A DNA stretch of 61,775 bases, filler included, from 3 parts of 3 records of this genome joined end to end with filler, not necessarily neighbours in it, one strand, 5' to 3'. Positions 1 through 31,470 are shown, counted from the first letter of the whole stretch. The notes: generated by a model from the sequence alone, not told the origin. A program made the numbers and translations.

Positions 1-30
1 CGCTGATGAAACGATCCGTGCAACACAGTC
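1..30. repeat. Left copy of a perfect 30-bp inverted repeat bounding contig 1 (probable inner end of an IS)
   Basis: cgctgatgaaacgatccgtgcaacacagtc (1-30) is the exact reverse complement of 31441-31470; identity stops at 31/31440. Confidence 0.9.
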
Positions 31-1242: not shown

Positions 1243-1290
1243 GTCGAGTCCTTTCTCTAATTGGGGCCCTGTGTTAGCAGGGCGAATAAA

Positions 1291-1313
1291 CAGGTCGAAA
1301 TCGTCCAGATTAA
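1291..1313 (-). promoter_or_regulatory. Candidate operator 1 (imperfect palindrome with GGACG-WWT-N4-CC core) between the divergent ICS and TetR genes
   Basis: Minus strand reads TTAATCTGGACGATTTCGACCTG; it shares its core with the sites at 26509-26532 and 27023-27050. Confidence 0.45.
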
Positions 1314-1414
1314 CGGTGGATAAGGCGTTGAAATCCGCCAAGGGCGTATGGGTTCGAGTTGCCCTCCGGCGGCCTTGCACCGAGAATGTTCTAACGACCG
1401 AAGGGAAGAGCTAG

Positions 1415-2281: not shown

Positions 2282-5200
2282 TTACCCTGCCGCCGTCGAC
2301 CCCTCCGCGCGGCTCTGCGGAGTGGGAAAGAACCCGCTCTTCCTGAAGTAGGCGATGTAGAGATCCAAGATCTGGGCGCTGATCTCTGGCGGCGCTATTC
2401 CGGTTCCGGCCAGCGCCGCCTCTATCTGATCTTGCCCCAGGGCGGATTCGGAGACGGGACCATCATATTTCTGCATGTGATCCGCCAGCAAAAGCGCCGG
2501 TGCCAATGCGGTATCCCCACGCGCTGCCAAGGACTGCGCGCTTTCTCGCAGCCGTTCCAGCCAAGCCTCAAACGGCAGTTCTTCCAGCTGGTAGCCCGCC
2601 CGGCCCAAAGCCGCGACGATGGCGCTGATACTGGTGCAGCTGCGGTTGGACAGGTGATAGGTCGCCCCGGCCTCGCCGTGTTCAAGCAGAGCAACCATCG
2701 CCCGCGCTACATAATCCACCGGAGCCAACGTCAGCTCATCAGCCTGCAGGCGCGGTGCGGCGCCCAATTGCAGCATGGAGCGGATGAAATACCAAAATCC
2801 CACGCCTGGCCCGCAAGCCCCACTGCGACTATGGCCGCTCACCCGTCCGGGGCGGTGGATTGTCACCGGCAGGCCGGCAGCTATGGCGTTGTGCATCATC
2901 TCTTCGGCGACCCATTTGCTGCGGACATAGCCGTTGGTCTCCACTTCGGCGGCCAAGATCCGGGTGTCCTCGCTGATCGTGGCCGGATTTTCACCCCGCC
3001 GTGAGACCACCGAGGCTGTGGAGACGAAATGCACCGGAACAGCCCGTGCGCCGAGCGTGGCCAGCCGCAGGATCTGCACCGCACCGCCGACATTGGTCGG
3101 GGCCAGATGGGCATAGGGCGCCGCCTCGTTGGTGGCCCCGGCGTTATGCAGGATCAGACCATAGCGGTCTGCAAGCGCCTGGAACGCTGTCGCGCTGAGG
3201 CCGAACCGCTCCTGAGACAAATCCCCGGCAAAGACCGTAAGGCGTTGTGCAAACCGTTCCTGCCAGAGCCCGTAGCCCTGCATCGCGGCACGCAAGCGTT
3301 GCGCGGCCGCCGCATCATCCGGTGCCCGCACCATACACTCCACCGCCAGCTGCGTTGTGGTCAGCAATTCCGCAAGCAAATGCGCCCCGAGGAACCCGGC
3401 TGCACCGGTCAGGAACAGAGGGCGGGCGCCGCTCAGATCCGGTTGAGCGGCCGGTGGACAAGGCAGATCCGTCGGCAATGCCGCATCGGCCTCCATCTGC
3501 CGCAAGAGTTCCGCTTCCGCCTGTCCCTCGGCCTGGTCCTGTGCGGCAGCCGATGGCGCCAACGCCGCCGCCAGCGCTGCCGGATTGGGGTGGTCGTAGA
3601 TCTGTCGTACGTTGATCTCGGTCTCCAGACTATCACGCAGCAGCCCCACCAGACGCACCGTCAGCAGCGAATGGCCTCCAGCTTCGAAGAAGTCCTCGAG
3701 CCGCCCCACCTCGCTGCGGTCCAATACCTGCGCAAATGCCGCGCAGATCCGGGCCTCCAGTTCGGTTTCGGGCGCGGAGCATCCCGCCTCAGAGGCCGGC
3801 TCTTCGGGTTCGGGCAACGCCGCAACGTCCAGCTTTCCGTTTTGAGTTCGCGGCAGATCCGCCACATAGACCAGCGCGGCGGGAACCATGTAGACTGGCA
3901 GTTCGCAGCGCAGGTGGTCTCGCAGCTCGGCTGGCGCCGGGGCGCTCTCGGTGCCGACCACATAGGCCACCAGTTGCAGCTCGCCTGAGCCGGCCGCCCG
4001 TCCGATGACTGCTGCGCGGCTGATCCCCGGATGGGCGACAATAACGTTTTCAATCTCTGCCGGTTCAATCCGATAGCCACGGATCTTCAGTTGGCTATCA
4101 GCGCGGCCAAGGAAATCGATCCGCCCATCCGCCTGCCAGCGGGCCAGATCGCCGGTACGATACAGCCGCTCGCCGGGTGCTCCCGTGGGATGAGCCACAA
4201 ACCGCTCGGCAGTGAGCCCGGGCCGCTGCACATACCCGCGCGCCAGTCCAACCCCGCTCAAATACAGCTCCCCCGTCACCCCGACCGGTGCCGGCAGCAA
4301 CCCCGGCGTCAAAATCATCGCCCGGGTGTTGGCGATAGGATGGCCGACCGAAGGTGTGTCGCTATCAGCCAGATCCGCCCCCAAAGCGTTGATAGTGTAT
4401 TCGGTCGGCCCATAGAGGTTATAGCCGCCGACTCCCGGCGCTTCGTGCAATTGGGTCCAAAGCGCATCGCCCACCGCTTCGCCGCCAAGCGAGACAAAGA
4501 CAACCCCGGTGCCAGCCTGCCCTCGCGGGCGCGGGCGTTCCAGCAGCCCGTGTTCAACCAGATAGGACCCATAGGTCGGGGTCACGTCGAAGGCATCAAT
4601 CTCGGCGGCGTCAAACAGCGTCAGCAGACGATCCGGGTCGCGCCGCAGTTCGTCGCTGATCACATGGACCTCGTGGCCGCTCAGCAGCCACAGAAGTTGC
4701 TCCCAGGAGGCATCAAAGGCAAAGGAAGTGGTATGCGCGATGCGGATCCGCCGCCCGCCCTGCGCCGCCAGCGTTGGCGCAAAAATCTCTTTTTGGTGGT
4801 TCTCAAACATATTGGTGAGCCCGCGATAAGGCACCGCAACCCCCTTAGGCATGCCGGTAGAGCCCGAGGTGAAGATCACATAAGCAAGATGATCTAGCCC
4901 ACCGGGCCGATCAACGTCGGGCCGGGTCTCGGGCTGTGCCGCCAGCGCCGCCTGACTCTCTGCGCTGTCGATCTCTACAATCCGGTAGTCTTTGCAATAG
5001 CTCTCAGGCAGCAGTTCACGCATCGCCGCGGTTGTCAGGATCACCGTCGGCTCGGCCTGATCCAGGACCGCTTCGATCCGCCGCGCTGGGGTTTCCGCGT
5101 CAATCGGCACATAGGCAGCATGGGCAGAGAACACCGCAAATAGGGCCACGATCATTACCTCTGAGCGCGGCAGCAGCAGCGCGACGCTATGTTCGGGAGA

Positions 5201-8200
5201 GACCCCGCGTGCCTGCAGCAGATGCGCCAGCCGGTTGGCTTGCCCCGCCAGTTCGGAAAAGCTCAGCTCAGTTTCTCCTGCCACAACTGCGCGCAACTCG
5301 GGGGTTTTCTCCGCCTGTGCAAACAGCAGGTCGGCAACCGATACGGTGCCATAATCCAGATCCGCCCCGGCGTCCGAGGATGGCAGCAGCGCCGGACAGG
5401 GGCGCAGCGCATCAACCTGCAACAGCGGCACCTGCGGCGCGGCGGCAAAGGCTGCCGCCAGATGCTTGTATGCCGCCAGCAGCGCTTCGGCATGGTCTGG
5501 GCTGACAATATCCCGCCGATACATCAACCTTAAGGTGATTCCCCCGGCGCCGGGAGATACCGCCATGCTGAGCGGGTAGTGGGTGGCATCGCGCACCGTT
5601 GCATCGCCAAACTGCAAGCTGGCCTCGGCGTCCCGGTCAAGTCCAGGCAGGTTCTGCACCGCAAACAAAGTATCAAACAGGGCACTGTGTCCGGCGATCT
5701 GCATCAGCCGCGACAAGGGCACATGAGAATGGTGCAGCGAAGCCGCCTTCTGGCTGTGTAAGGCGCCAAGCGCTTCCAGAACCGTCAACCCGCCATCGGC
5801 CCGCACCCGCGTCGGTACTGTATTGAACATCAGCCCAATGATCTGATCCACGCCGGCAATCTCGGCCGGACGGCCGGAGACCACATTGCCAAAGACCACA
5901 TCACTGCTGCCGCTCATCCGCATCAGCAGCGCAGCCCAAGTAAGCTCCAGCACCGAGCTGAGCGTAGTTGCCCCCCGCCGCGCCAGATCCTGAAGCGCGG
6001 CCATATCCTCAGCTGAGATGCAGGCTTCGCATTCCGCGCTCTGACTCACGCTAGCCTCCAGCCCTTGTGCCGAGGGGTAGAGCAACGTCGGCTGTGCCCC
6101 CGAGAGGATCTCGCGCCAACGGGAGTCCGCGCTGGTCTCATCCTGCGCCTCCAGCCAGCTCAGATACTGCCCGAAGTCCGGCGGCGGCGTCACCGTTTCA
6201 GGCGTTTCGTAAAGGTCGAAGATCAAACGGAACAGCAACCGGATTGACCAGCCGTCAAGCAGGATGTGATGGGCGGTCAGATACAGGTAATGACCACCCT
6301 CCGGGTTTGCATTTCGGGCCAGTGCAAAGCGAAGCAGCGGCGGGTGGGCGGTGTCAAAAACGGCGCCATACTCCGCATCCGCCAGTGCCTGCGCCGCCTG
6401 CGGCGTGTTCGCCTCAACGGCACTAAACGGGATCTCGGCATGGTGAGGGCAGACCTGTACCATCCGCCCCTTCACTTCGGTAAACCCGGCGGTAATATTG
6501 GGGATCATGTCCGCCGCGCGCCGGATCGCGGCATGCAACCGCGACGGGTCAACATGACCGCGCAGGCTCAACCGGGTTTGTGAGATATAGACATCCTGCT
6601 CCCCCGCCTTGGTTCCTGCCGCGTGAAACCGCAGCCCCTGTTGCAAGGGGGACAGAGGATACACCGCCCGCAAAGGACCAAATTGCGCCTCCAGTATGCG
6701 CCGCTGCGAAGGCGCCAGCATCACCTGACCAGCGTCATCCGTGCTTTGCGGTGTCAGCGGGACTGCGGGGACCCCCGCCAGCAGCTCCGGCAGTGAGCGC
6801 TGCCAGATTGCAAGCTGCTGCTCTACCTCTTCTTGCGGCTGCCTTGCCCGCAGCGTCAGCCGTGCCCGTTTGCGATGTAGGCAAATATCGAGACACCAGA
6901 CATGGGGCTCACTCTCTGTGAGGCCACTGTCCGGGACGGCAGACAGAGACGTAACTGCATCTCGATCTCCCCAATCTCCCAGTCGGATCACCAGCCGGTG
7001 CTGTGCCGCGGGCAGCGCATCAAAGGCACCTTCGGTCTCCGGGTGGATGTCCCGCGCCAACTGGTATGCGGTTGCGGCATCACCAGTCATCGCGCCCTCA
7101 GCCCCCAAGCGCAATGCCAGCGCCGCCCGGTGCCGCAAGCCCTCCGCGCCCGCCGACTGACCCTTGCCCTGCGGCGGGATCACTACCGGCAGCAGCCGCC
7201 GACAACAGCCAACCAGCGCCATCCCGGCGGCGGGCAGCGGTGTGCGGTCCCGATCCGGCTCGTCGATATCCAGCCTGAACGGCCCCTCGGTGCCTTTTAG
7301 AGCGGGCAACAGCGCCGCCACCGCATTCGTGCGCAGCGATGTCACAGCGGGCCAATCTGCCAATGCGGGCAATGGGATCTCGATGACAGCCTCGCATGCG
7401 GTACCAGACGTGGCCAACGGCGGATTGATTGTCGGCTGTTCCAGATAATCCAGCCAAGTCTCCGCCAGATCCAGGATCCGCTCCGAGCGCGCAAGGTCCG
7501 CTGTCTGGTTCAACCAGCTGTCATAAGACGCGGGCGCTAGAGGCGGCCGCAGCTGCCCGCAAACACGCAGATCCGACAGGTCGGCAAGCAGGACCGCCCA
7601 GCTTTCCGCATCGATACAGGCTGCAGGGGCACTCAGTACCAAACGGTCCGGACCGGCCAGCCAAGCCTGAAAACGGTCCTGGCTGGTCTCCTCGGGTGAT
7701 GTCGCGACAAACAGCGGGCGGGCCAGCTGCTCCGCCGCTGTCATGACCCGCAACCCATGGTCCTCCACCTGCAAGCGCAGCGCCGGGTGACGCGATAGCG
7801 CCCGCACCAGCGCAGCGGCGATTTCAGGACTTGCAATCTCCGGGCGCAGGGCGATCTCGCGGTGCTCTATCCCTGAAGCCACTGATGCAAGCCCCCGCAG
7901 CAACGCCAGCCCTGGTGCCGATAGCGGTGCCGCGGCCAGATCGCCAAGCTCCGACACCCGCAGTTCAGGGTGATGCAGCATCAAACACAGGGCCGCCGTC
8001 ACCATCGAGAGCAGATCAGCGCTGCTGCTGTCGCTGAACAGATCACTGGCATAAAGCAGCGACAGCCCGATCCGCCCCGCCTCACCTTCATCGTGCAGCA
8101 CAAAGGTCAGGTCGAATTTCGCTTGCGTTTGCCTGGGTTCGGCAACCTGCCAAGTCCGTCCGGCAAAGCGCATCTGCGGCCAAGGGCGACTGGTCGTGAC

Positions 8201-9361
8201 CATGACGTCAAACAGCGGCGTCCGATTGGCTTCACGGCGCGGGTTCAGTCGTTCCACGACCTGTTCAAACGGCACGTCGCGATGGTCGAGCGCCTCCAGC
8301 ATAGCCTCGTTACAGCGCAGCAGGACTGTGTTGAGACTGGGGTCTCCGCTCAGGTCGGCGCGCAGCACAACCGTGTTGGTGAAAAATCCCAGGGTGCCCG
8401 CCAATGCCTGATCCTGCCGCATGTCCACCGGCACCCCGAGGCAGAGATCCGCCCCGGCGCCGGAGCGGGACAGCACCGCTGCCACCGCAGTCTGCATCAT
8501 CACCAGCGGCGACGCCCCCTGACTGCGCGCCGCCTCGCGCAGCTGCGCCGATAGGGTCGCGTCCAGCCACTGACGGTGCTGGGCACCTTTGAAACTGGGT
8601 TCTGCCGGACGCGGCTGATCCAGCGCCACCCCAGTGCCTGTGGGCAAGTCGGCGAGGCGCGCGGCCCAATAGCCCAGCTGGTCGCGCGACAGATGCCCCT
8701 CGGCCAGCCGTTCCTGTTCCCACTGGGCGTAGTCGCTATAGCGCAGCGTATCGGGTTCGCCGCTCTCTGACAGTTCTCCGGCCAGCGCGCGCTCCAAGTC
8801 TCGCAGCAGCGTACCAAAGGAGCCACCGTCCCCGGCGATATGCGGCAGGCACAACACCAGCGCGCAGACCTCGCCGTTCCGATGCACCAGCATCGCTCTC
8901 AGCGACGCTTCCCGGGTCAGGTCAAACACCCTGTCTCGTTCCGCCCTGGCAAAGGCGTCAAGTGCCGATTCCGGGTCCGCGCCGGTCAGCGTATGAGCGG
9001 TGACACCGGGCCAGAGCTCAGGCTCAATCACCTGTTGCGGGTTACCGTCCGCGTCCTGCACATAGCGTGTGCGCAGAATATCGTGGCGCCGGGCCACTTC
9101 GCGCAGCGCCACCTCAAGCCGCGCCTGCGTCAGATCCGGTGCCGCTCCTTCACCCTCCGCGCGGATAACGATGCAAAAGTTATAGGCCGCCCCGTCGGCA
9201 AGCTGCGCCTGATACCACATGCGCAGCTGCGCCGCGGACAGTGGCAGCAACCCGGCCTGGGTTCTGCGTTGTGGGCGGCTGTTGGCCGCGCTGCCGGTTT
9301 GTATGCCTGCGCGGGCCAGTTTCTGTTGCAGCAAACGCTGTTTCGGATCGGTAGATGTCAT
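2282..9361 (-). CDS. Terminal NRPS: C - degenerate E-like - C - A - T - thioester reductase (R)
   Basis: C1 LPHIAGDG; decayed E-like PAACIDAESW; C2 PLSPLQQG/AHHILLDGWS; A YVIFTSGSTGMPKG, FDASWE, NLYGPTE, YRTGDL, NGK; T GGHSLL; R LTGAAGFLG, GYVRSKW, HRPG. Confidence 0.93.
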   Translation of the reverse strand: MTSTDPKQRLLQQKLARAGIQTGSAANSRPQRRTQAGLLPLSAAQLRMWYQAQLADGAAYNFCIVIRAEGEGAAPDLTQARLEVALREVARRHDILRTRYVQDADGNPQQVIEPELWPGVTAHTLTGADPESALDAFARAERDRVFDLTREASLRAMLVHRNGEVCALVLCLPHIAGDGGSFGTLLRDLERALAGELSESGEPDTLRYSDYAQWEQERLAEGHLSRDQLGYWAARLADLPTGTGVALDQPRPAEPSFKGAQHRQWLDATLSAQLREAARSQGASPLVMMQTAVAAVLSRSGAGADLCLGVPVDMRQDQALAGTLGFFTNTVVLRADLSGDPSLNTVLLRCNEAMLEALDHRDVPFEQVVERLNPRREANRTPLFDVMVTTSRPWPQMRFAGRTWQVAEPRQTQAKFDLTFVLHDEGEAGRIGLSLLYASDLFSDSSSADLLSMVTAALCLMLHHPELRVSELGDLAAAPLSAPGLALLRGLASVASGIEHREIALRPEIASPEIAAALVRALSRHPALRLQVEDHGLRVMTAAEQLARPLFVATSPEETSQDRFQAWLAGPDRLVLSAPAACIDAESWAVLLADLSDLRVCGQLRPPLAPASYDSWLNQTADLARSERILDLAETWLDYLEQPTINPPLATSGTACEAVIEIPLPALADWPAVTSLRTNAVAALLPALKGTEGPFRLDIDEPDRDRTPLPAAGMALVGCCRRLLPVVIPPQGKGQSAGAEGLRHRAALALRLGAEGAMTGDAATAYQLARDIHPETEGAFDALPAAQHRLVIRLGDWGDRDAVTSLSAVPDSGLTESEPHVWCLDICLHRKRARLTLRARQPQEEVEQQLAIWQRSLPELLAGVPAVPLTPQSTDDAGQVMLAPSQRRILEAQFGPLRAVYPLSPLQQGLRFHAAGTKAGEQDVYISQTRLSLRGHVDPSRLHAAIRRAADMIPNITAGFTEVKGRMVQVCPHHAEIPFSAVEANTPQAAQALADAEYGAVFDTAHPPLLRFALARNANPEGGHYLYLTAHHILLDGWSIRLLFRLIFDLYETPETVTPPPDFGQYLSWLEAQDETSADSRWREILSGAQPTLLYPSAQGLEASVSQSAECEACISAEDMAALQDLARRGATTLSSVLELTWAALLMRMSGSSDVVFGNVVSGRPAEIAGVDQIIGLMFNTVPTRVRADGGLTVLEALGALHSQKAASLHHSHVPLSRLMQIAGHSALFDTLFAVQNLPGLDRDAEASLQFGDATVRDATHYPLSMAVSPGAGGITLRLMYRRDIVSPDHAEALLAAYKHLAAAFAAAPQVPLLQVDALRPCPALLPSSDAGADLDYGTVSVADLLFAQAEKTPELRAVVAGETELSFSELAGQANRLAHLLQARGVSPEHSVALLLPRSEVMIVALFAVFSAHAAYVPIDAETPARRIEAVLDQAEPTVILTTAAMRELLPESYCKDYRIVEIDSAESQAALAAQPETRPDVDRPGGLDHLAYVIFTSGSTGMPKGVAVPYRGLTNMFENHQKEIFAPTLAAQGGRRIRIAHTTSFAFDASWEQLLWLLSGHEVHVISDELRRDPDRLLTLFDAAEIDAFDVTPTYGSYLVEHGLLERPRPRGQAGTGVVFVSLGGEAVGDALWTQLHEAPGVGGYNLYGPTEYTINALGADLADSDTPSVGHPIANTRAMILTPGLLPAPVGVTGELYLSGVGLARGYVQRPGLTAERFVAHPTGAPGERLYRTGDLARWQADGRIDFLGRADSQLKIRGYRIEPAEIENVIVAHPGISRAAVIGRAAGSGELQLVAYVVGTESAPAPAELRDHLRCELPVYMVPAALVYVADLPRTQNGKLDVAALPEPEEPASEAGCSAPETELEARICAAFAQVLDRSEVGRLEDFFEAGGHSLLTVRLVGLLRDSLETEINVRQIYDHPNPAALAAALAPSAAAQDQAEGQAEAELLRQMEADAALPTDLPCPPAAQPDLSGARPLFLTGAAGFLGAHLLAELLTTTQLAVECMVRAPDDAAAAQRLRAAMQGYGLWQERFAQRLTVFAGDLSQERFGLSATAFQALADRYGLILHNAGATNEAAPYAHLAPTNVGGAVQILRLATLGARAVPVHFVSTASVVSRRGENPATISEDTRILAAEVETNGYVRSKWVAEEMMHNAIAAGLPVTIHRPGRVSGHSRSGACGPGVGFWYFIRSMLQLGAAPRLQADELTLAPVDYVARAMVALLEHGEAGATYHLSNRSCTSISAIVAALGRAGYQLEELPFEAWLERLRESAQSLAARGDTALAPALLLADHMQKYDGPVSESALGQDQIEAALAGTGIAPPEISAQILDLYIAYFRKSGFFPTPQSRAEGSTAAG

Positions 9362-10830
9362 AGGTCTGCTCCAGAAGTTGCAGGGGAAGTCAGCAAACGG
9401 TTCTGCTGCGGCGACGGAGGAAGCGCCGGGCGCAGCCGGTGGATTTCGGCGCCGCGGGCCTGTTCCCGGGCTAGCCGCGCGGCGATCTCCGCACTCCAGA
9501 GATCGCCGGGATGTGCCATCGGCACCCCTGGCGGGTAGGCGATGAAATACTCGGCACAGGCCGTGTCAGGTTGCGGCAGGCCCGTCATTGCGGCAGCGGC
9601 GGGCATCGGTTGCAAATGGTCCCGGATCTCTGGTGCGCGCGCCGCCAGATCACGCAGCGCTGCCAGCAGCGCTGCCACATCGCTGTCCCCCACGCCGATA
9701 TGGATCCGCGCCACCAGACGGTCGCCATTCTGGGCCAGCAGGACCCGATGCCGGGCAAAGAGCCAGGCCTGTACCGCTGGCGGCGATCCCGGACAATGCA
9801 GATGCACAACCAGCGGATCCATTCCGTGAAAGGCATCGCGCGGCGGCGGCGGCAGGATTCCCCGCAACAGAGGATCATTCTCCAATTCACGCAGCAACCG
9901 CGCGCGGAGCCGCTTTGCCCGTGCCAGCGCCTCGGAACCGCAGCGCTCTGCATGTGCTCGGGCCAGATCCAGAGAGGCCAGGATCGGCCAGGATGGCGAG
10001 GTCGAATGATTGCGATAAAGCGCCTCGGAAATCCGCGCCGCTGCAGCTGGCCCGCCGAGCAGGTGAATATAACTGCCCTGACGCAACGCGCCCATGGTCT
10101 TATGTGCCGATTGGGTCACCACCACCGGCGCCTGCCGGGGCAGCTTACGCGCCACCGCAAGAGTCGTTGTTGCGGCGGTGTCGAGGCAAAAACCATGGAT
10201 CGCCGACCAGGCTTCGTCCACGATCACGGCGGTCGCCGGCGAAGCCTCGATCAAGATCGGCAGCACATGCTCCAGCCGCAATTGGCGCCCATCATATGCG
10301 CAGGCATTCAGAGCCATTGCCGCAACCGGCTGTCCGATCCGAACCCGTTCGACCAGCAGCCGCACCGTCTCTACCACATCCAGCCGCACCGGCTCGCTGC
10401 CAGCAACGCAGGGCATGCGGATCACGTCGCGTCCCTCGGCTGCAAAAACCAGCGATTGGTGCGCTGTCGGATCCAGCAGCAGACTGCTTCCTGGCGGACA
10501 AAGCGCCTCCAGAACAACGCGGTTCGAAAGCGTTGTGCCAAGACTGCCAAAGAAGGTCTGATCGGCGCCAAAGGCCTGCGCGGCCGCCGCCTGTGCCGCT
10601 GCCAGCGCCCCCTGGGGCGCGAAGAAGGAATCCACGGCCCCGCCGACCCAGCTGCGGTCCGTTTCGGCAAAGCGGCCCCCCAGAAGCTGCCCATAACGCG
10701 CCGCCAGATCCGGCGGCAGATCGCGCAACAGGCCGGACCAGGGGACGGCATGGAAGTCATGACAGGGCACGCCTTCCAGAAGTGCGCCAAGTCGGTCCGC
10801 CAATGGCGTTTCGAACCGGTCAGAATGCAT
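9358..10830 (-). CDS. PLP-dependent Orn/Lys/Arg-type amino acid decarboxylase
   Basis: AAQAFGADQTFF, VDEAW, TQSAHKT (PLP lysine), STSPSWPILASLD, YPPGVP. Its stop overlaps the next gene's start (ATGA). Confidence 0.85.
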   Translation of the reverse strand: MHSDRFETPLADRLGALLEGVPCHDFHAVPWSGLLRDLPPDLAARYGQLLGGRFAETDRSWVGGAVDSFFAPQGALAAAQAAAAQAFGADQTFFGSLGTTLSNRVVLEALCPPGSSLLLDPTAHQSLVFAAEGRDVIRMPCVAGSEPVRLDVVETVRLLVERVRIGQPVAAMALNACAYDGRQLRLEHVLPILIEASPATAVIVDEAWSAIHGFCLDTAATTTLAVARKLPRQAPVVVTQSAHKTMGALRQGSYIHLLGGPAAAARISEALYRNHSTSPSWPILASLDLARAHAERCGSEALARAKRLRARLLRELENDPLLRGILPPPPRDAFHGMDPLVVHLHCPGSPPAVQAWLFARHRVLLAQNGDRLVARIHIGVGDSDVAALLAALRDLAARAPEIRDHLQPMPAAAAMTGLPQPDTACAEYFIAYPPGVPMAHPGDLWSAEIAARLAREQARGAEIHRLRPALPPSPQQNRLLTSPATSGADL

Positions 10831-15022: not shown

Positions 15023-15028
15023 ATCAAG

Positions 15029-18828: not shown

Positions 18829-20456
18829 TGGGTGTTTCCCTCTTTTTTGGGAGCCGGGGCGACAGGAGACGGGTACTGTGCCAAACGGCGGCGCAGCAGG
18901 GTCTCGCGGCTGGGGGCAGATTGTTTTGTGGAACGATCGCTTCGCGGAGCAGGCGTTGGCAGCGCTGTCCGGTCGAGCTTGTTGTTGGGGGTCAGCGGCA
19001 GCTTCGGCAGAGCAACGATATGGGCCGGAATCAGATGCTTCGGCAGCCGTGCCGCGAGATGATCGCGCAGCGCGCGCCGGTCCAGATCAGCCTGAGTGGT
19101 GACCACATAGGCTACCAGGCATTGCTCTCCCGCCGCCCCATCCGGATCGGGTTTCACGGCCACCGCGCTGGCGCTGACATCTGCATGCGCTGCCAAGGCG
19201 GCCTCGACTTCACCCGGTTCGATGCGAAAACCACGTAGCGACAACTGCGCATCCGCCCGCCCGATAAAATCCAACCCCGTGGCGCTGCACCGCACCAGAT
19301 CGCCACTGCGGTACAACCGCCCGCCTCCACCCGCAGGATCCGCGACAAAGCGACTGGCGGTCAGCCCCGCGCGGCGCAGGTAGCCACGCGAAACCTGAGC
19401 ACCGCCCAGATACAATTCCCCAACCGCATCCATCACCACCGGTTGCAGGTCGGCACCCAGAACATGCCCGTGAAACCCGGGCAACGGGTGGCCGATCGGG
19501 CTTTCGCCTGCCGCGCCGTGCTGATCCGGCTTCATGTCATAGGCTGTCACATGCACTGTGGTCTCAGTGATGCCGTACATATTGACCATCCGGGGCCACA
19601 TCGGGCGACGAACAAACCAGTCTCGCAGCCGCGCCGGTTCCAGGGCCTCGCCGCCAAAGATCACCAGCCTGAGGTCCGCCAAAGTGTGTTTGCCCTGCGC
19701 ATCGGCCTTGGCCAGCGCCGCAAAGGCGGTTGGGGTCTGGTTCAGAACCGTCACCGCTTCGCGTTCCATCAACTTCAGCAGATCCTCCGCCGACCAGGTG
19801 GCTTCCTGCGGTACGATCACCGCCTGCCCGCCGGTCAGCAACGGCGCCCAGATCTCCCAGACCGAAAAGTCAAACGCATAGGAATGAAACACCGTCCAGA
19901 CATCCTGCGCAGAGATGTCAAACTGCGGCACCGTCGCATCTAGCAGCCCCAGAAAGGCGCGATGGGACACCACGACCCCCTTGGGCTGCCCGGTGGAACC
20001 GGAGGTATAGATCACGTAGGCGGCACTATCGGGATGAATAACCGGCGCGACGGGTGAGGCATCATCCGTGCGGCTGACGCTGTCCGGCAGCAGGATCCGT
20101 GCCGCATCCTCGTGCCCCTGCGGCAGCTCAACCCCTGCAGTGGTAACGATACTGACAGGCGCGGCGTCCACGATTAGGTGAGCCAGCCGCGCCGCCGGGT
20201 AGGCGGGGTCCAGCGGCAGATAAGCTGCCCCGGTCTTTAGAACCGCCAAGAGTGCCACCACCAGATCGGCCGAGCGTGGCAGCGCCACTCCCACCAGGGT
20301 CTCCGGCCGCGCCCCTTGCGTCAGCAATCTTTGCGCCAGCTGCTCGGACCGCGCATCCAACTCCGCATATGTCAGCCGCTCGGCCCCGTCGCTGACTGCA
20401 CAGGACTCTGGCCGTCTGGCCACTTGCTGGCGGAATCTCTCCACAAGAGTTGTCAC
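18825..20456 (-). CDS. Stand-alone adenylation domain, predicted L-threonine
   Basis: YTSGSTGQPKG, FDFSVWE, VLNQTP, IFGGE, NMYGITETTVH, NNK give the code DFWNIGMVHK (canonical Thr). GTG start follows GGAGG. Confidence 0.9.
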   Translation of the reverse strand: MTTLVERFRQQVARRPESCAVSDGAERLTYAELDARSEQLAQRLLTQGARPETLVGVALPRSADLVVALLAVLKTGAAYLPLDPAYPAARLAHLIVDAAPVSIVTTAGVELPQGHEDAARILLPDSVSRTDDASPVAPVIHPDSAAYVIYTSGSTGQPKGVVVSHRAFLGLLDATVPQFDISAQDVWTVFHSYAFDFSVWEIWAPLLTGGQAVIVPQEATWSAEDLLKLMEREAVTVLNQTPTAFAALAKADAQGKHTLADLRLVIFGGEALEPARLRDWFVRRPMWPRMVNMYGITETTVHVTAYDMKPDQHGAAGESPIGHPLPGFHGHVLGADLQPVVMDAVGELYLGGAQVSRGYLRRAGLTASRFVADPAGGGGRLYRSGDLVRCSATGLDFIGRADAQLSLRGFRIEPGEVEAALAAHADVSASAVAVKPDPDGAAGEQCLVAYVVTTQADLDRRALRDHLAARLPKHLIPAHIVALPKLPLTPNNKLDRTALPTPAPRSDRSTKQSAPSRETLLRRRLAQYPSPVAPAPKKEGNTQ

Positions 20457-20618
20457 GTCATTGCCTCCACAAGGATACCGGCGGCCGATCGCGCCGGGCG
20501 TCAGGTTGCAGGAGATCCCCCCGGGCCCGCGCCAGTCACGGCGGGTCCGAACGGATCAGTTATTCTGGATGAAAAGCTGGCCTACTGCCGCAATGGGCTG
20601 GCGGGCAGAAGCGGCGCC

Positions 20619-22268
20619 TCAGGCCGGTTGCAGCGCGGCAATCTGTTCCAGCAATGCCTTGCGGTCGATCTTGCCAAAGCGGGTCAGAGGAATGCGCGCC
20701 ACCACCTCCAGCCTGTCCGGCAGCTTGTAAGCCGCCACTCCACGCGTGTTGAGATAGCTGCGCAGCACCCGCAAACTCGGCGCTTCGGAGGTGGCCGCGC
20801 AAATCACGACGCAGGTCGCCTGCCCAAGAGCCTCATCCGGCAGGCCGATCACCGCTACATCGCGTAACGCCGGGTGGTCTATCAGATGATCCTCAAGTTC
20901 CCCGGCCGAGAATTTCTCGCCGCCGCGATTGATCTGATCGCCGGCTCTTCCCTCGACCACCAGATGGCCAGACGGCAGGCGCCGCACCAGATCACCGCTG
21001 CGGAAAAAGCCATCAGCGGTGAAGGCCCGGGCGTTGACCTCGGCAGAGGCAGCATATTGACGGATGGTATAGGGGCCGCGGGCCCAGAGCTCTCCGACAG
21101 AACCCTCAGGCACTTCCTGCCCTGCCTCGTCAACGATGCGGATCTCGTCATCCGGCGAGGCGGGCCGACCCTGGCAAATCTCCACAAGCTCGGCCGGATC
21201 GGTCTGCCGGGTGAAATTCAAAAGCCCCTCTGCCATGCCAAAGACCTGCTGCACCCGGGCCCCCAGCAGCGCCGGAATCCGCGCCGCCACCGCTGGCGCC
21301 AGCTTCGCACCGCCCACCTGCACCACTTCTAGGCTCGACAGGTCGCGGTCATCAAATTCCCGCGCCTCCAACCATAGTGCAATCAGCGTCGGCACCGCCG
21401 CCGTAATCGTCACCCGATGTTCGGCAATCAACCCAAACACTGCGCCTGGGCTTGGATCGCGGGCCAGCACCACGGTGCCACCGGCGCTCAATGTGCCCAG
21501 GATACCGGGACAGGCCAACGGGAAATTGTGCTCCGCGGCGAGACAGGCCAGATAGACGGTCTTGGTCGAAAGACCGCAAACCTCCGCCGCCACCCGCGCA
21601 TTATAAGAATAATCATCGTGACTGCGCGGAATCAGCTTCGGAAGACCGCTGGTGCCACCCGAATGCAGATAAAGCGCCACCGTTCCCGTGTCGATCAGGC
21701 CAAACTCTGCGGTCTCCCCGGCACCGGACATAAACCTTTCGTAATCAACAGCCCCCTCCAGGTCACCGGTCTCGCCGACCACCAGGATCTTTTCGAGCGC
21801 AGGCAACTCTGCACGTGCCTGCCGCGCGAGATCGCGGAAATCGAAACTGGCGATCCGATCAGGAATGGCATAAGCCACCGCCCCGGACCCCCGTGCCAGA
21901 TGCAGAACCTCACGGGCACGATGCGTCGGCAGCACCATCACGGGCACCACCCCGGCCCGGATGCAGCCGAAAAACAGCGTCATCAGCTCCAGACAGTTGG
22001 GCAGTTGCAGGATTATCCGGTCCCCGGCCTCCAACCCCCAATTCAACAGTGCTGCCGCGGCACGTTCAGCTTCAGCGTCCAGTTCGGCATAGCTTAGCCG
22101 CCGCCCCTCGCTGTCGATCAGTGCGCAGGCTTCCGGGGCCTCGCGGGCAAAACGGCGCAGCGGTTCGGATAGGTCTTCACCGCGCCAATAGCCCTTTTCG
22201 CGATAGCGGGCGGCAAAGTCTTCGGGCCAGAGCGGCCGCGAAAGCGCCGGTGTCTGCTGCGGGTCCAT
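20619..22268 (-). CDS. Salicylate-AMP ligase (MbtA/YbtE/PchD-like aryl acid adenylation enzyme)
   Basis: SGGTSGLPKLIPR, HNFPLACPG (Cys at the DhbE-S240 position indicates salicylate type), QQVFGMAEGLLN, GPYTI, INRGGEK. ATG at 22268 follows AAAGGA. Confidence 0.9.
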   Translation of the reverse strand: MDPQQTPALSRPLWPEDFAARYREKGYWRGEDLSEPLRRFAREAPEACALIDSEGRRLSYAELDAEAERAAAALLNWGLEAGDRIILQLPNCLELMTLFFGCIRAGVVPVMVLPTHRAREVLHLARGSGAVAYAIPDRIASFDFRDLARQARAELPALEKILVVGETGDLEGAVDYERFMSGAGETAEFGLIDTGTVALYLHSGGTSGLPKLIPRSHDDYSYNARVAAEVCGLSTKTVYLACLAAEHNFPLACPGILGTLSAGGTVVLARDPSPGAVFGLIAEHRVTITAAVPTLIALWLEAREFDDRDLSSLEVVQVGGAKLAPAVAARIPALLGARVQQVFGMAEGLLNFTRQTDPAELVEICQGRPASPDDEIRIVDEAGQEVPEGSVGELWARGPYTIRQYAASAEVNARAFTADGFFRSGDLVRRLPSGHLVVEGRAGDQINRGGEKFSAGELEDHLIDHPALRDVAVIGLPDEALGQATCVVICAATSEAPSLRVLRSYLNTRGVAAYKLPDRLEVVARIPLTRFGKIDRKALLEQIAALQPA

Positions 22269-22269
22269 A

Positions 22270-23130
22270 TCAGGTCCTTTCCTGAAGAGAGGCTTCGGTA
22301 CAAGTTGCAAGAAATGACAACAGCTGGGCGTTCACCGCCTTCGGCTGTTCGAGATAGCCATAGTGTCCGGCATCGGCGATTCCGCGATATATGGCACCGG
22401 GGATCACTTCGGCCACCTCACGGCTCAGGCGCGGGGTTATGGCGGCATCATCGGCAAAGGTCAGCGCCAGATAGGGCCGCGTTACCCCGCGATAGGCATC
22501 GCGACGGTCCCCGAGGTTTGCCGACACCATAAGCTGCGCCCGATGCCCCGGACTGAACGGACCTTCATCAAGCGACAACATGTCGATCCAGTCCTGCGCC
22601 CGCTGGTCATCCGCCAGCGTCGCCGGCGACAGATACTGAAGCGCATTCACCGCTGCCCGATAGGAGATTGGCGCCGGTTCACGCCTATCCGCCATCGCGA
22701 TCTCTCCCTTGATCATGGCCCGCTGGACCGGGTCAAGCCGCGCGTGCGCCGCCAGCGCGATCACGCAACGGACCAGATCAGGCCGCGTCAACGCCACCTC
22801 GGTAACGATGCGCGCGCCCAGTGACGTGCCGATCAGCGCCACCGGCTCGGTACCGAGATGGCGGATCATGGCCACTACGTCGCCGGCCATATCGTCGATG
22901 GTAAATCCCTGCACATCGGTATCGCTCGGAGCGATACCGCGATTGGTCAGGGTCACCACCCGGTAGCCCGCCGCCGTCAGCGCCGGAACCTGATGGAAAT
23001 TCCAGACGCGGCCCGGGCTGCCGGTCCCCATCACCATCACCACCGTCTCGCCAAGAGCAGGGCCGGTCGACGGGAAGTCCTCATAGGCCAGTTGCAGCCC
23101 GTCGTGGCTGAAATACTGCACCGCCATCAT
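22270..23130 (-). CDS. Alpha/beta-hydrolase (siderophore-cluster associated; possible thioesterase or editing enzyme)
   Basis: GTSLG nucleophile elbow, GTGSPGRVW..HQVPAL, DAGHYGYLEQP; translationally coupled to its neighbours. Confidence 0.85.
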   Translation of the reverse strand: MMAVQYFSHDGLQLAYEDFPSTGPALGETVVMVMGTGSPGRVWNFHQVPALTAAGYRVVTLTNRGIAPSDTDVQGFTIDDMAGDVVAMIRHLGTEPVALIGTSLGARIVTEVALTRPDLVRCVIALAAHARLDPVQRAMIKGEIAMADRREPAPISYRAAVNALQYLSPATLADDQRAQDWIDMLSLDEGPFSPGHRAQLMVSANLGDRRDAYRGVTRPYLALTFADDAAITPRLSREVAEVIPGAIYRGIADAGHYGYLEQPKAVNAQLLSFLATCTEASLQERT

Positions 23131-24527
23131 CCCGCCTCCGCCGCGGCGCCCTGCGGCACCAGATGCAGACTAGCACTGCGCAGTTTCTCGTTGGTTTCCT
23201 CCAGCTCCCGCACCGCGTCTGAAGTGGCGATCAACCCTGCCCCCGCCCGCAGCCAGGTCTGATGGCCGCAGGCAAAGACAGAGCGGATCACCAGGGCTGC
23301 GTCCAGCGCGCCGCCCAGGGTTCCGGTCAGCACCGCCCCGCTGTAAAGCCCGCGCGCAGAGACCTCTCGCGCTTGGATCTCCTCCACCGCACGGCGCTTG
23401 GGAATACCGGAAGTGGTGACCGGCGGGAACAAGCTGGCAAAGGCATCCCAGGCGCTCTTGCCTGGCGCCAGCTGCCCTTCGACCGTGGACGCAATATGCT
23501 GCACGCTGCCGCGCTCCACCACCTGCAGGAAATCACGGATCGCGACGCTCTCAGGCCTGCAGACCCGGGTTATCTCGGTCTGCGCGAGTTCCACCGAAAG
23601 CGTGTGTTCGTAGATTTCCTTCGGATCGGATAACAGTTCCGCCCGGAGCGCTGCACGATCCTGCCGGGTCGCGCCAATCGCCCGCGTCCCAGCCAGCGGC
23701 TGGCTGCGCACCCGGCCCGCCTCTGTGACCTCGACGATCGCACCGGGGCTGACACCGGCAGCGGTTTGCCCCGCCATATGCAATAGAAACGACCGCGCCG
23801 GGGTATTTGCCTGCCGCAGCGCCCGGTAAGATTCAACCATATCCAATGGCACCGTCACCGGTACCGGCCGCGACAGGATCAGCTTGCGAAAGCCGCTGCC
23901 GTCGATCTCACGGATCGCCTCGGCGGCGGCGACTTCATAGGCTTTCGCCCCTTGCGTCAGATCCACTGCCGCACGAGCCTGAGGCACCGCCGCCATGGGC
24001 CCCGCCAGCAAACGCCGCCAGATTTCCGACAGCGTCGCATCTGCCACTTGCAGATCGGCCGTGCCAGATCGCAGTATGACCTCGTGCGCCGGACGCATCA
24101 GATGCAGCAGCGGTGCCTGCGCGTCGGCCACCGGCTCCCCCTGCAACAATGCGGCCAGCTCAAACGCCGCCCAGCCGTAAAACCGTGCCTCCGGCGCACC
24201 GCCCAATTGCGCCAGCGCCTGCTGCACCGCCGCCAGGGGATTTTGCCCAAGCGACAAATGCTGCCGCCCCGCGGCCGCGTCCAGCGTGATCCCGCTTGCA
24301 GTCAGCGTCAGGCTCGCAGCCGATCCGGCGGCAAAATGAACCGCGTCCCCGATCTCATAGAGCATATAGTCCGCGCGCGCGCCCAAATACCGCCGGACCT
24401 CGTCCCGCGCCAGGGTCGCAGCCAGCGCTGCTGCGGCTGTGACCGGATCTCCAAGCACGGGCGCCTGACACTGCATAGCGGCTTTCACAGGCTCTGACTG
24501 CATCAGCATCACATCTCTATCCTTCAT
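23127..24527 (-). CDS. Salicylate synthase homolog (MbtI/Irp9-like) with SPE to SPG substitution
   Basis: KLILSR, NTPARSFL, QPLAGTR, DPKEIYEH, RGSVQH, VTTSGIPK, RGLYSG, LRAGAG, RELEETNEK. The start could be 24527, 24509 or 24503. Confidence 0.88.
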   Translation of the reverse strand: MKDRDVMLMQSEPVKAAMQCQAPVLGDPVTAAAALAATLARDEVRRYLGARADYMLYEIGDAVHFAAGSAASLTLTASGITLDAAAGRQHLSLGQNPLAAVQQALAQLGGAPEARFYGWAAFELAALLQGEPVADAQAPLLHLMRPAHEVILRSGTADLQVADATLSEIWRRLLAGPMAAVPQARAAVDLTQGAKAYEVAAAEAIREIDGSGFRKLILSRPVPVTVPLDMVESYRALRQANTPARSFLLHMAGQTAAGVSPGAIVEVTEAGRVRSQPLAGTRAIGATRQDRAALRAELLSDPKEIYEHTLSVELAQTEITRVCRPESVAIRDFLQVVERGSVQHIASTVEGQLAPGKSAWDAFASLFPPVTTSGIPKRRAVEEIQAREVSARGLYSGAVLTGTLGGALDAALVIRSVFACGHQTWLRAGAGLIATSDAVRELEETNEKLRSASLHLVPQGAAAEAG

Positions 24528-24546
24528 ACCGTCCCTCAACCGGCGC

Positions 24547-24774
24547 TCATGCGCCCGCACGCATTTGCTCGCGCAACGTCCTTGGACGCATGTCGGTCCA
24601 GGTCTCGTCGATCCAATCAAGCACCGCCTGCCGCGGCGCCCCATCCGGCCCGCCAAAGGCGATCCGCCACCCCTCGGGCACCGCATGGAACACCGGCCAA
24701 AGAGAATATTGCTCTTCATCGTTGACAAGAGCGAAGAACGCCGCGTCCTCGGCATCAAACGGGTTGCTGCTCAT
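24547..24774 (-). CDS. mbtH: MbtH-like protein
   Basis: NPFD, LVNDEEQYSLWP, VPEGW, WTDMRP, with all three conserved Trp residues. Confidence 0.97.
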   Translation of the reverse strand: MSSNPFDAEDAAFFALVNDEEQYSLWPVFHAVPEGWRIAFGGPDGAPRQAVLDWIDETWTDMRPRTLREQMRAGA

Positions 24775-24810
24775 GAGAAAACTCCTTCGTATTTTTCTGG
24801 GGCCAGGGCA

Positions 24811-26166
24811 TCAGGCTGGCACTGGGCTGGCCTGATCCGCCAACGCGCTGCGCAGGATATCGCTGGCCCGGACGGCAACATTCGACAACAGCGAGGAAGT
24901 CATCCCATGGCTATGTTCAACACCACCGTTGAGGTAGATCCGGCGTTCCAGACCCGGCAATTCCAGGCTGTAATCCCGCGCGACGCGGGGCAGATCACCG
25001 TCATAAGCTGCTGACACGTCCAATGTGGCACCCAGCATTTCGCGCAGGTCGAAGGGGGCAAACCCGGTGGCATAGATCACCGCATCGACCTCCAGATCGA
25101 CCTGATGGCGATCGCCCAGATCGCGCAGCGTTACCGATACCCCATCCGTGCCCACCTGCTCTCGGGCCACTTCGGTCACCCGATGGACGTAAAGCCTGCG
25201 CCGCCCGGTGATCTTCTCGTCATACTCGCGCCGATACAGCGCCTCGATCAATTCGCCGTCCACGGCAGAATAGTTGGTCGCCAGATGGGTCTCGCGCAAC
25301 CGGGTCTTCAAGGGCTGCGGCGCGGTATAAAAGTCATCCACCGAAGCAGGATCGAAAATCCGATTGGCATAGGGAGTATCATCCGAAGGCGAATAGCCAA
25401 ACCGCCGGAATGACGCATGCACCTCGGCCTCCGGGTAACTGTCGTGCAGGTATGCGGCAACCTCCGCCGCACTTTGCCCCGATCCAACCACCAGAAACCT
25501 CCCCTTTGGCCGCGACGGCAGCGCTGTGAGCTGGTCCAACAGCTGATGATTATGGAACACCCGCGGGCCCGGACTCACGCCCCGCGGCAACACCGGCCGA
25601 ATGCCCGCTCCCACCACCAGCCGCTGCGCGCGGATGGTATCTTGGGTCACCAGCGTGCCCGTCCGGTGTTCGGTTGTGATCTCGAAACCGCCGCCGCGCC
25701 ACTCGATTCGCATCGCGCGCGTCCCGTAGGAAACCGGCAGCTGCACCTGTGCCGCGGCCCAGTTCAGATAGTCATGAAACTCCCGCCGGGTGGGAAAGAA
25801 GGTCTTCATATTGATGAAATCCGCCAATCGGTTCCGGGCGTGCAAATAGCTGAGGAACGAATAGCGGCTGGTCGGACTACGCAGCGACACCAGATCCTTG
25901 AGGAAACTGATCTGCATGGTGGTCTCCGGCAGCAACATGCCGTCATGCCAGCCGAACTGCGGCTTTGCCTCGACAAAGGCAGCGCTGGGAACCGCACGAT
26001 CCGGGCTTGCCGCGCGCGCTTCCTCCAGCGCGATCGCCAGCGCCAGGTTGGACGGGCCGAAACCGATCCCCAGAAGGTCCACCTCCTGTCCCGCGGCCCT
26101 CTGCGCCCGAACCGCAGAGCCTGCATGGGTACTATGCGGCTGGTCGATCACTTTTTCTGTCAGCAT
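24811..26166 (-). CDS. L-ornithine/lysine N-monooxygenase (PvdA/IucD family)
   Basis: GIGFGPSNL (FAD), WHDGML, MQISFLKDL, VGSGQSAAE (NADPH), TNYS, ATGF, SSLLS. ATG at 26166 follows AGGA. Confidence 0.93.
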   Translation of the reverse strand: MLTEKVIDQPHSTHAGSAVRAQRAAGQEVDLLGIGFGPSNLALAIALEEARAASPDRAVPSAAFVEAKPQFGWHDGMLLPETTMQISFLKDLVSLRSPTSRYSFLSYLHARNRLADFINMKTFFPTRREFHDYLNWAAAQVQLPVSYGTRAMRIEWRGGGFEITTEHRTGTLVTQDTIRAQRLVVGAGIRPVLPRGVSPGPRVFHNHQLLDQLTALPSRPKGRFLVVGSGQSAAEVAAYLHDSYPEAEVHASFRRFGYSPSDDTPYANRIFDPASVDDFYTAPQPLKTRLRETHLATNYSAVDGELIEALYRREYDEKITGRRRLYVHRVTEVAREQVGTDGVSVTLRDLGDRHQVDLEVDAVIYATGFAPFDLREMLGATLDVSAAYDGDLPRVARDYSLELPGLERRIYLNGGVEHSHGMTSSLLSNVAVRASDILRSALADQASPVPA

Positions 26167-26450: not shown

Positions 26451-26490
26451 AAATGAGAACCATTGTAACATATTGTTTTATATTAATTAT
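26451..26490. promoter_or_regulatory. AT-rich promoter segment with a Fur-box-like sequence
   Basis: AAATGAGAACCATTGTAAC resembles the AATGAGAATCATT Fur-box core; it lies in an AT-rich patch upstream of the biosynthetic operon. Confidence 0.35.
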
Positions 26491-26508
26491 TTACCAACAG
26501 CGCAGAAG

Positions 26509-27050: not shown

Positions 27051-27088
27051 GTACCAGAGTTGCGAATTAAGCCGAGTGGAGAAGATAT

Positions 27089-31440: not shown

Positions 31441-31470
31441 GACTGTGTTGCACGGATCGTTTCATCAGCG
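31441..31470. repeat. Right copy of the perfect 30-bp inverted repeat bounding contig 1
   Basis: gactgtgttgcacggatcgtttcatcagcg is the reverse complement of 1-30; the contig ends here. Confidence 0.9.

Follow-up and report, generated by a model that had tools for sequence, protein, structure and literature searches.

Phenolate-oxazoline siderophores have so far been described mostly from actinomycetes, vibrios and pseudomonads, and the pathways closest to the locus considered here are those for mycobactin and nocobactin, for pseudomonine, acinetobactin and fimsbactin, for actinomycete compounds such as kasichelin and, with respect to the terminal module, for myxochelin. The locus fills the first of three contigs that are joined in a window of 61,775 nucleotides (the whole stretch of DNA that was analysed), and consists of a minus-strand operon of nonribosomal peptide synthetase (NRPS) and tailoring genes with genes for aryl-acid supply, regulation and uptake on either side. 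Our analysis indicates that this cassette is probably a complete NRPS pathway for a salicylate-capped 5-methyloxazoline peptide that carries one or more N-hydroxylated basic residues and is released reductively, the product most likely being a siderophore that is re-imported via the adjacent receptor.

The start of the pathway is the most firmly predicted part. Genes for a chorismate-derived aryl acid, an aryl ligase together with an aryl carrier protein (ArCP), and a cyclisation (Cy) domain together with a Thr-type adenylation (A) domain are all present, and these are among the features that define an aryl-capped oxazoline NRPS siderophore pathway. Genes were called from a map of open reading frames (ORFs) combined with Pfam and NCBIfam profile scans of the window, and every A-domain signature was read manually after the A domains of the cluster had been aligned with each other. 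The signature of the aryl ligase, NFCAQGVLNK, is shared by the window and all relatives (8/8, i.e. the window plus 7/7). Phe236, Cys240 and Leu330 mark salicylate ligases, versus Tyr, Ser and Val in ligases for 2,3-dihydroxybenzoate (DHB); the cassette enzyme scores 585 bits against TIGR02275 versus a DHB cutoff of 723, lies below both DHB equivalog cutoffs, and has no EntA- or EntB-type gene beside it in the ORF map or Pfam scan of the 31-kb contig. The free-standing A domain reads DFWNIGMVHK, again in the window and 7/7 relatives (8/8), and PMC12283262 places this signature in its Thr/Dhb-activating section, among those selective for modified Thr moieties. An 809-amino-acid (aa) protein resembles MbtB without an A core and carries an N-terminal PP-binding stretch with GLDS and a Cy domain with the motif DMIAADAVS at aa 225 (DxxxxDxxS). 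We regard the predicted start as secure by homology: the aryl ligase would load salicylate onto the N-terminal ArCP, the MbtH-assisted free-standing A domain would load Thr in trans onto the peptidyl carrier protein (PCP) domain of the same ArCP-Cy-PCP protein, and the Cy domain would then form 2-hydroxyphenyl-5-methyloxazolinyl-S-PCP.

Salicylate itself may be made by a split route. In MbtI and Irp9 a Lys acts as general base and a Glu as general acid. The salicylate-synthase homologue of the cassette keeps the Lys of KxxLSR and has SPG where the solved MbtI-type and Irp9-type chains have SPE, so that the Lys and Glu pair of a bifunctional salicylate synthase is reduced to the Lys. Gly in place of Glu is found in the window and in six alphaproteobacterial loci of the cluster family (7/7), and Glu in the other 43 of the 49 salicylate-synthase matches obtained from 81 loci. 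The Gly variant is always accompanied by an isochorismate synthase and by a hydrolase resembling Rv0554/BpoC; the isochorismate synthase is kept in the clusters of relatives, including the Gly-type clusters that were inspected in full. For the hydrolase of the cassette, M. tuberculosis Rv0554/BpoC gives the best PDB matches (184 bits over the full length, the next best reaching 54 bits). Judged from these sequences, isochorismate synthase and the Glu-less homologue may together make salicylate, the latter as a lyase-only relative of salicylate synthase. Whether a salicylate synthase without its general acid has here turned into a dedicated isochorismate-pyruvate lyase is one of the questions of enzymology that the locus raises.

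Beyond the Cy protein, the assembly line comprises a free-standing condensation (C) domain and two large NRPSs. The 1400-aa NRPS has a C domain (aa 29-464), an A domain (485-970), a PCP (991-1053) and a 340-aa tail that holds a domain of the C/epimerisation (E) fold at aa ~1078-1395. The 2359-aa NRPS starts with three C-family domains, namely C1 (aa 37-472, xHxxxDG), a His-less C-like domain (C', aa ~495-900) and C3 (aa ~900-1340, HHxxxDG), which are followed by A (1347-1843), PCP (1871-1934) and reductase (R, 1983-2344) domains. Two of these stretches were cryptic in the profile scans, and each was aligned with six relatives and folded, the folds being compared with the PDB. The tail of the 1400-aa protein has no Pfam match, yet its HxxxDG motif (H130, D135, G136) is invariant in 7/7 sequences, its AlphaFold2 model has a mean predicted local distance difference test score (pLDDT) of 76.6 and a predicted template modelling (TM) score of 0.79, and its Foldseek matches belong to the C/E superfamily only (best E 1.6e-14). 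For the middle stretch of the 2359-aa protein, Pfam gives at most a 17-bit Condensation match and there is no catalytic His; the model is of low confidence (pLDDT 61.8, TM about 0.3), and the Foldseek matches are C, E, Cy and X domains only (best E 7e-12). On their modelled folds, both stretches are C/E-superfamily domains. The free-standing C domain is conserved in all relatives and has ordinary C domains as its PDB matches, and the terminal R domain scores 288 bits against TIGR01746 (cutoff 213) with GxxGxxG and YxxxK intact. The line thus totals seven C-family domains, Cy included, against only three A domains for amino acids, together with four carrier domains, a single aryl ligase and a single reductase; catalytic motifs are intact in the Cy domain, four C-type domains, the four carrier domains and the R domain. 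All parts that an initial annotation of the window had named (ligase, Thr A domain, Cy, C-A-PCP, reductase module, monooxygenase, decarboxylase, MbtH and hydrolase) prove to be real, with profile scores far beyond chance, and its assignment of a siderophore-type NRPS locus with a salicylate/Thr/Cy start and a reductase end is borne out by domains, signatures and motifs; the free-standing C domain and the two cryptic C/E-fold domains had been missed.

The substrates of the two further modules can be narrowed to a lesser extent. In the middle module, the signature (I)DAEMLT(A/S)GDK is found in 8/8 sequences, with one A/S and one L/I change, and the A4 motif AIDATAE can be read with the Asp either at position 235 (DAEMLTAGDK) or at 236 (IDAMLTAGDK). 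The spacing to the next Gly, which is the same as for the canonical FDAS of the terminal module, favours Asp-235; the Asp-236 register resembles, by conservative changes, the beta-Ala signature (Asp shifted to 236, Asp331). The beta-Ala label given earlier to this module consequently depends on one ambiguous A4 register and is not established, even though the C-A-PCP gene is there as described. The signature of the terminal module, DAEDSGLINK (conserved 5/5), agrees about equally well with the Arg consensus and with the N-hydroxy-ornithine signature. With the Arg consensus given in section 11 of PMC12283262, it agrees at 7/10 positions. This pocket reads as one that activates a basic residue, with no finer assignment, and acidic groups in the pockets of both modules suggest cationic or N-hydroxy side chains. 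The two modules would each add a residue, the second being an Arg/Orn/Lys-like one held on the C-A-PCP-R part of the last NRPS. That part is MxcG-like: aa 899-2347 are covered over the full length of model NF038078, with 706 bits for a cutoff of 2300. Release by the R domain would yield an aldehyde or alcohol.

How N-hydroxylation and any hydroxamate arise is the point on which two explanations compete. The flavin N-monooxygenase scores best in the PDB with MbtG, a Lys N6-hydroxylase (417 bits), followed by the Orn hydroxylases KtzI (334) and PvdA (265), against 104 bits for DfoA-type diamine hydroxylases and 90 for putrescine N-hydroxylase; with the histamine N-monooxygenase model TIGR04439 it reaches 149 bits, the cutoff being 700. 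By these scores, the enzyme groups with the amino-acid hydroxylases and not with the amine hydroxylases. It had been annotated as an Orn N-monooxygenase, of which the amino-acid type stands, with MbtG scoring higher than the Orn enzymes, and the enzyme would N-hydroxylate Lys or Orn. The decarboxylase that is encoded between the NRPS genes is matched only by PF01276 (Orn/Lys/Arg decarboxylase major domain), has the lysine motif SAHK (SxHK), and finds a 'probable amino acid decarboxylase' (96 bits) and then Lys, Arg and Orn decarboxylases as its best PDB matches. This family, the amino-acid type of the hydroxylase and its low histamine-model score speak against the analogy with pseudomonine, acinetobactin and fimsbactin that had been drawn from the pairing of the two enzymes. 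Rhizobium paknamense keeps every cassette gene except the decarboxylase, which was found nowhere in its genome with the window protein as query, and provides a natural 'knockout' for that enzyme. In our proposal, the decarboxylase would be a source of an amine or an omega-amino building block for which cells also have other routes. No gene for an acyl- or formyltransferase fits in the ORF map of the contig, none is annotated in the cluster of Rhizobium etli 8C-3, and there is no polyketide synthase (PKS) ketosynthase or acyltransferase gene and no GNAT-type gene among the ORFs of the contig. The receptor of the cassette resembles hydroxamate-type receptors (FhuA 510 bits, FoxA 468 bits, both under the equivalog cutoffs). 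With no transferase, hydroxamate-type uptake and a Lys/Orn hydroxylase, the most economical explanation is that one or more surplus C-family domains N-acylate the hydroxylamine, the candidates for making any hydroxamate being the free-standing C domain, C1 of the last NRPS and the HxxxDG tail of the middle NRPS.

Alternatively, the pathway could follow pseudomonine, acinetobactin or vibriobactin logic, in which a diamine made by the decarboxylase (cadaverine, putrescine or agmatine), possibly N-hydroxylated, serves a VibH-like free-standing C domain as the soluble nucleophile with which the salicyl-oxazoline is taken from its carrier, the remaining C domains then acylating the second amine. 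The conserved free-standing C domain with its intact HHxxxDG, the embedding of an Orn/Lys/Arg-family decarboxylase between NRPS genes, and the lack of an A-PCP pair belonging to C1, as expected of a domain that serves a soluble acceptor, are all in keeping with such a route, and R. paknamense could do without a decarboxylase provided that the diamine is widely available in metabolism. The hydroxylase, however, scores far higher with the amino-acid types than with the diamine and histamine enzymes, the free-standing C domain matches ordinary elongation C domains (VibH, judged by name, is not among the 39 PDB matches listed), and a full C-A-PCP-R module would be left without an obvious role. We therefore regard the diamine route as rather unlikely and favour N-hydroxylation of an amino acid and acylation by a surplus C-family domain. 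Two topologies are open by analogy with described systems: either the chain is linear and its side chain is acylated while bound to the last carrier, in the manner of myxochelin, or the free-standing C domain captures a soluble amine made by the decarboxylase, in the manner of vibriobactin or acinetobactin.

Several points weigh against a siderophore pathway as we have drawn it. The product is predicted only. Signatures leave more than one candidate substrate for two of the amino-acid modules, the terminal one fitting Arg and N-hydroxy-Orn equally. In related pathways a cyclic hydroxamate is made from the thioester, which would be lost on reductive release; this makes the origin of a hydroxamate speculative, and the absence of the decarboxylase from R. 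paknamense means that its role cannot be essential there. The contig has no gene for a phosphopantetheinyl transferase (PPTase), an exporter or an ABC permease or ATPase, the R. etli version of the cluster carrying a PPTase. Finally, the 920-nt divergent promoter region has no significant Fur, Irr or RirA site: the best intergenic match to the 19-nt Fur consensus in the first contig is 12/19, at 26449, a score reached by 32% of shuffles, and neither the Irr (iron control element, ICE) nor the RirA (iron-responsive operator, IRO) pattern matches in the intergenic region 26167-27088. The iron-box scan favours neither side. A sigma-70 promoter scan of the same region returned 0 sites.

Another possibility is that the product is not primarily a siderophore. 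An intact reductase after the terminal module, the resemblance of the terminal signature to the Arg consensus and the lack of a significant iron box would fit a peptide aldehyde with a salicyl-oxazoline cap, perhaps ending in argininal, that acts as a protease inhibitor or antibiotic, the uptake genes being merely co-located. We consider this very improbable. Receptor, binding protein and siderophore-interacting protein, which had been recognised before as neighbours and are indeed present on the plus strand at 27089-31416, stay with the genes for biosynthesis in all complete relatives, even where the order has changed; iron chelators are typically marked by an N-monooxygenase and a phenolate-oxazoline start; and the bounds of the cassette enclose biosynthesis and uptake genes together. 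A siderophore remains the preferred product, and the conservation of the whole gene set across loci, with rearrangement, argues for one functional unit.

The features of the first contig are listed in Table 1. The operon runs without interruption from 26166 down to 2282, with the N-monooxygenase gene first, and several junctions are ATGA or short overlaps in the ORF coordinates, as expected for a single operon; most of the genes are translationally coupled. These limits coincide with the extent proposed initially, which holds for the operon and falls short of the unit: the latter fills the whole 31,470-base contig (window 1-31470), its genes span 64-31416, and it includes the isochorismate synthase and TetR genes. 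TetR homologues also adjoin the cluster in the loci of three relatives (L085, L086 and L087), the copy in R. etli 8C-3 being annotated TetR/AcrR. The MbtH-like protein is 66-76% identical in relatives and is annotated MbtH in R. etli 8C-3.

Table 1. Coordinates of cassette features in the window.
Feature	Position	Strand	Basis
Terminal inverted repeat, left arm	1..30		Perfect 30-nt arm, 100% complementary to 31441-31470
Isochorismate synthase	64..1380	-	PF00425 E 1.5e-71; TIGR00543 264.5 bits (cutoff 224.75); SPE intact; true start may be further inside
TetR/AcrR-type regulator, divergent from the NRPS operon	1415..2107	+	Read from translation
2359-aa NRPS, C1-C'-C3-A-PCP-R	2282..9361	-	Pfam/NCBIfam domains and motifs
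Pyridoxal phosphate (PLP) decarboxylase, Orn/Lys/Arg family	9358..10830	-	PF01276 E 1.3e-32; overlaps flanking NRPS genes by 4 and 11 nt
1400-aa NRPS, C-A-PCP plus cryptic C/E-fold tail	10820..15022	-	Domain scan, fold
Free-standing condensation domain, HHILWDG	15029..16402	-	PF00668 E 7.8e-47; start overlaps upstream stop (ATGA)
809-aa ArCP-Cy-remnant A C-terminal subdomain-PCP	16399..18828	-	Two PP-binding stretches, Condensation, AMP-binding_C
Free-standing adenylation domain	18825..20456	-	TIGR01733 418.5 bits; Thr-type signature
Aryl-AMP ligase	20619..22268	-	PF00501 E 4e-70; salicylate-type signature
Alpha/beta hydrolase, Rv0554 (BpoC)-like	22270..23130	-	Abhydrolase_1, Abhydrolase_6
Salicylate-synthase-family enzyme, Gly for general-acid Glu	23127..24503	-	TIGR03494 370 bits (cutoff 325)
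MbtH-like protein, 75 aa, own frame	24547..24774	-	NPFD...SLWP...PxGW read from translation
Flavin N-monooxygenase, Lys/Orn amino-acid type	24811..26166	-	PF13434 E 5.5e-97
TonB-dependent siderophore receptor, FhuA/FoxA-like	27089..29227	+	TIGR01783 394 bits (cutoff 223.5)
Periplasmic siderophore-binding protein, ferrichrome/ferrioxamine-type	29173..30297	+	PF01497; NF010649 162 bits (under cutoff 374)
Siderophore-interacting (ViuB-type) flavoreductase	30319..31416	+	PF08021 E 7e-26; PF04954 E 3e-24
Terminal inverted repeat, right arm	31441..31470		30-nt arm; contig end

The ends of the contig bear on how the cassette is inherited. The arm length of 30 nt equals the overlap of an assembly graph built with k=31, which means that one and the same repeat is joined at either end, in opposite orientations; as the size of a graph overlap, it does not give the full length of that repeat. 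In other runs, the match of a relative's contigs to the cassette breaks off at 34 and 31426, near the arms of the repeat. The nearest genome, which belongs to the same species, is 99% identical over the second contig (window 31571-51695) and has no match to window 1-31470 except two short weak ones. Inverted-repeat ends and the lack of the whole contig from a 99%-identical genome point to a transposon-like or otherwise mobile cassette. The three contigs of the window are joined by linkers of N and TTAATTAATTAA stop codons at 31471-31570 and 51696-51795, and nothing encoded beyond 31570 can thus be taken as adjacent to the cluster. Position 31571 was considered as an island boundary inside recQ and rejected, the break being the N linker between contigs.

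Within the Alphaproteobacteria, the cassette is carried by a small number of marine and plant-associated members. Full-length homologues of the ArCP-Cy-PCP protein (~800-830 aa, 50-97% identity) come from named sources that include Rhizobium tumorigenes, Rhizobium spp., Agrobacterium burrii, a metagenome-assembled genome (MAG) of Azospirillaceae and Pseudonocardia spinosispora, and most of its longer named matches are called 'phenyloxazoline synthase MbtB'. In a scan with one genome per species, seven alphaproteobacterial loci carry the cluster family. By tblastn, a Rhodobacteraceae MAG (the closest named relative), Rhizobium sp. P38BS-XIX, A. burrii and Agrobacterium cavarae have the same genes in the same order, and a Rhodospirillaceae MAG and R. 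paknamense have the same gene set in a rearranged order. Eight plasmid records hold the cassette, and the annotated plasmid of R. etli 8C-3 has the same order plus the PPTase, with no product-specific names. Full-length C-C'-C-A-PCP-R proteins of ~2350-2400 aa are also found under the name Agrobacterium rhizogenes. When the His-less middle domain was used as a family marker, 0/401 genomes sampled across the class were positive, versus 5/5 known carriers in the control, and the Cy protein was present in none of 25 genomes of the nearest genome's genus. A genus-level search of 41 relatives gave a single match, to a domain with 36% identity in another NRPS (G040), which is not of this family.

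In one seawater study, three RNA-seq libraries yield contigs that match the locus at ~97% identity, one such contig having 277 differences in 8764 bases. The contigs span 34-26318 or 34-31426, with a word depth of 160-530 in two runs. They are compatible with expression of the cassette, DNA carry-over being possible, and give no indication of how it is regulated. One run has no cover over 26812-30813 with the operon covered; a gap between contigs is no proof of anything, and we did not use it as evidence of strand- or operon-specific transcription. Two runs with a small share of matches, one from wastewater and one aquatic, were left aside.

The other two contigs hold further features. An ORF for recQ at 31656-33209 appears 5'-truncated only because the second contig starts there. 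A gene for a bacterial alpha-2-macroglobulin (1911 aa) followed by one for a PbpC-type penicillin-binding protein, the usual pairing, lies at 36027-43777 and is unrelated to the siderophore genes. BatA/DUF4159, DUF58 and MoxR-like AAA genes at 45458-51688 form an aerotolerance-type operon, in which the 680-aa ORF at 45458-47500 has no Pfam match. The third contig (51796-61775) starts with a (CA)n run, has a G+C content of 0.53-0.55 versus 0.60-0.66 elsewhere, and has no match in the nearest genome.

An important question is whether the pathway or its product has been described before. The initial annotation had not recognised the combination as a characterised cluster, and this agrees with what we found. 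Full-text searches of the literature, subscription journals excepted, found no characterised counterpart, and homologues bear no product-specific name, their labels being generic ones such as 'condensation domain-containing protein' or 'non-ribosomal peptide synthetase'. Neither the paper on Tritonibacter mobilis AK171 nor a metallophore genome-mining paper (PMC12971057) describes the cluster, as far as the accessible portions of both go. The family does occur in the well-studied genera Rhizobium and Agrobacterium, which would favour a cluster or counterpart that has already been characterised and a product that is a known compound. A. rhizogenes K84 reportedly makes an iron-repressed hydroxamate siderophore (Penyalver et al. 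2001, as cited in PMC8205166). Against this, the K84 locus is reportedly of the NRPS-independent type. Given the literature searched and the names of homologues, we find it improbable that the compound is already known.

More tentatively, and with rather less than even confidence, we propose that the product is an undescribed scaffold that would combine a salicyl-methyloxazoline head, one or more hydroxamates made by C domains, a reduced basic end and a split salicylate route, and that its cassette would move in transposon-like fashion among marine roseobacters and Rhizobiaceae plasmids and be expressed in seawater. If true, this would be a new structural type among the phenolate-oxazoline siderophores. 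Such a pathway would pose two further questions of enzymology, namely how hydroxamates form where an acyltransferase is lacking and several extra condensation-family domains are present, and what role a thioester reductase plays at the end of such a line. The cassette is found both on conjugative plasmids of Rhizobium and in a strain that is presumably a marine roseobacter, and is missing from a genome of the same species; it would thus also provide a clean case of horizontally traded iron acquisition. Siderophore clusters that are new turn up often, but this one unites several uncommon enzymatic features with clear mobility. Culturable carriers exist in R. etli 8C-3, R. paknamense DSM 100301 and A. 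burrii, and the chemistry is therefore within reach.

Compared with known systems, the cassette shares features with four groups of pathways. With pseudomonine, acinetobactin and fimsbactin it has in common an aryl-oxazoline start, one decarboxylase, one flavin N-monooxygenase and a C domain that possibly forms the hydroxamate directly. The histidine decarboxylases of those three pathways are group II enzymes, whereas the decarboxylase of the cassette is of fold I (PF01276); in addition, its hydroxylase is of the amino-acid type, and it has two additional NRPS modules and a reductase. The likeness to kasichelin, madurastatin, cahuitamycin and amychelin lies in salicylate, a Thr or Ser oxazoline, N-hydroxy-ornithine logic and a spacer residue between two ligands. 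Those siderophores come from Gram-positive hosts, and the kas line, as given in section 6 of PMC12305651, reads PCP-Cy-A-PCP-C-A-PCP-E-C-A-PCP-E; a reductase, a decarboxylase and a free-standing C domain are all lacking from it.

The terminal module is closest to myxochelin MxcG (C-A-PCP-R on Lys), with which the last 1450 residues align end to end and share a basic-residue A domain and a reductase of the short-chain dehydrogenase/reductase (SDR) type. The score, at less than a third of the equivalog cutoff, indicates a common architecture and not an equivalog. The aryl acid of the cassette would be salicylate cyclised with Thr in place of the 2,3-DHB of myxochelin, two extra C-family domains precede the module, and there is no MxcL-type aminotransferase.

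Mycobactin and nocobactin (MbtA, MbtB, MbtG, MbtH, MbtI) offer the largest number of counterparts: a salicylate-synthase-family enzyme, a salicylate-type ligase and MbtH, a hydroxylase whose best solved relative is MbtG, a Cy protein whose named homologues are mostly MbtB, and a C/E-like domain after a carrier domain. Unlike in mycobactin, the MbtB-like protein of the cassette lacks its A core, which is replaced by the free-standing A domain, and the salicylate synthase, accompanied by an isochorismate synthase, is without the general-acid Glu. Neither PKS modules (MbtC/D) nor an MbtK-type acyltransferase is found in the contig, so that this is not a mycobactin cluster; release would be reductive instead of by lactam formation, a decarboxylase, a free-standing C domain and the C-C'-C head of the last NRPS are added, and the host is Gram-negative with a TonB receptor. 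Set beside all of these systems, the cassette represents a mobile and so far uncharacterised version of the pathways for aryl-oxazoline/hydroxamate siderophores, with a predicted product.

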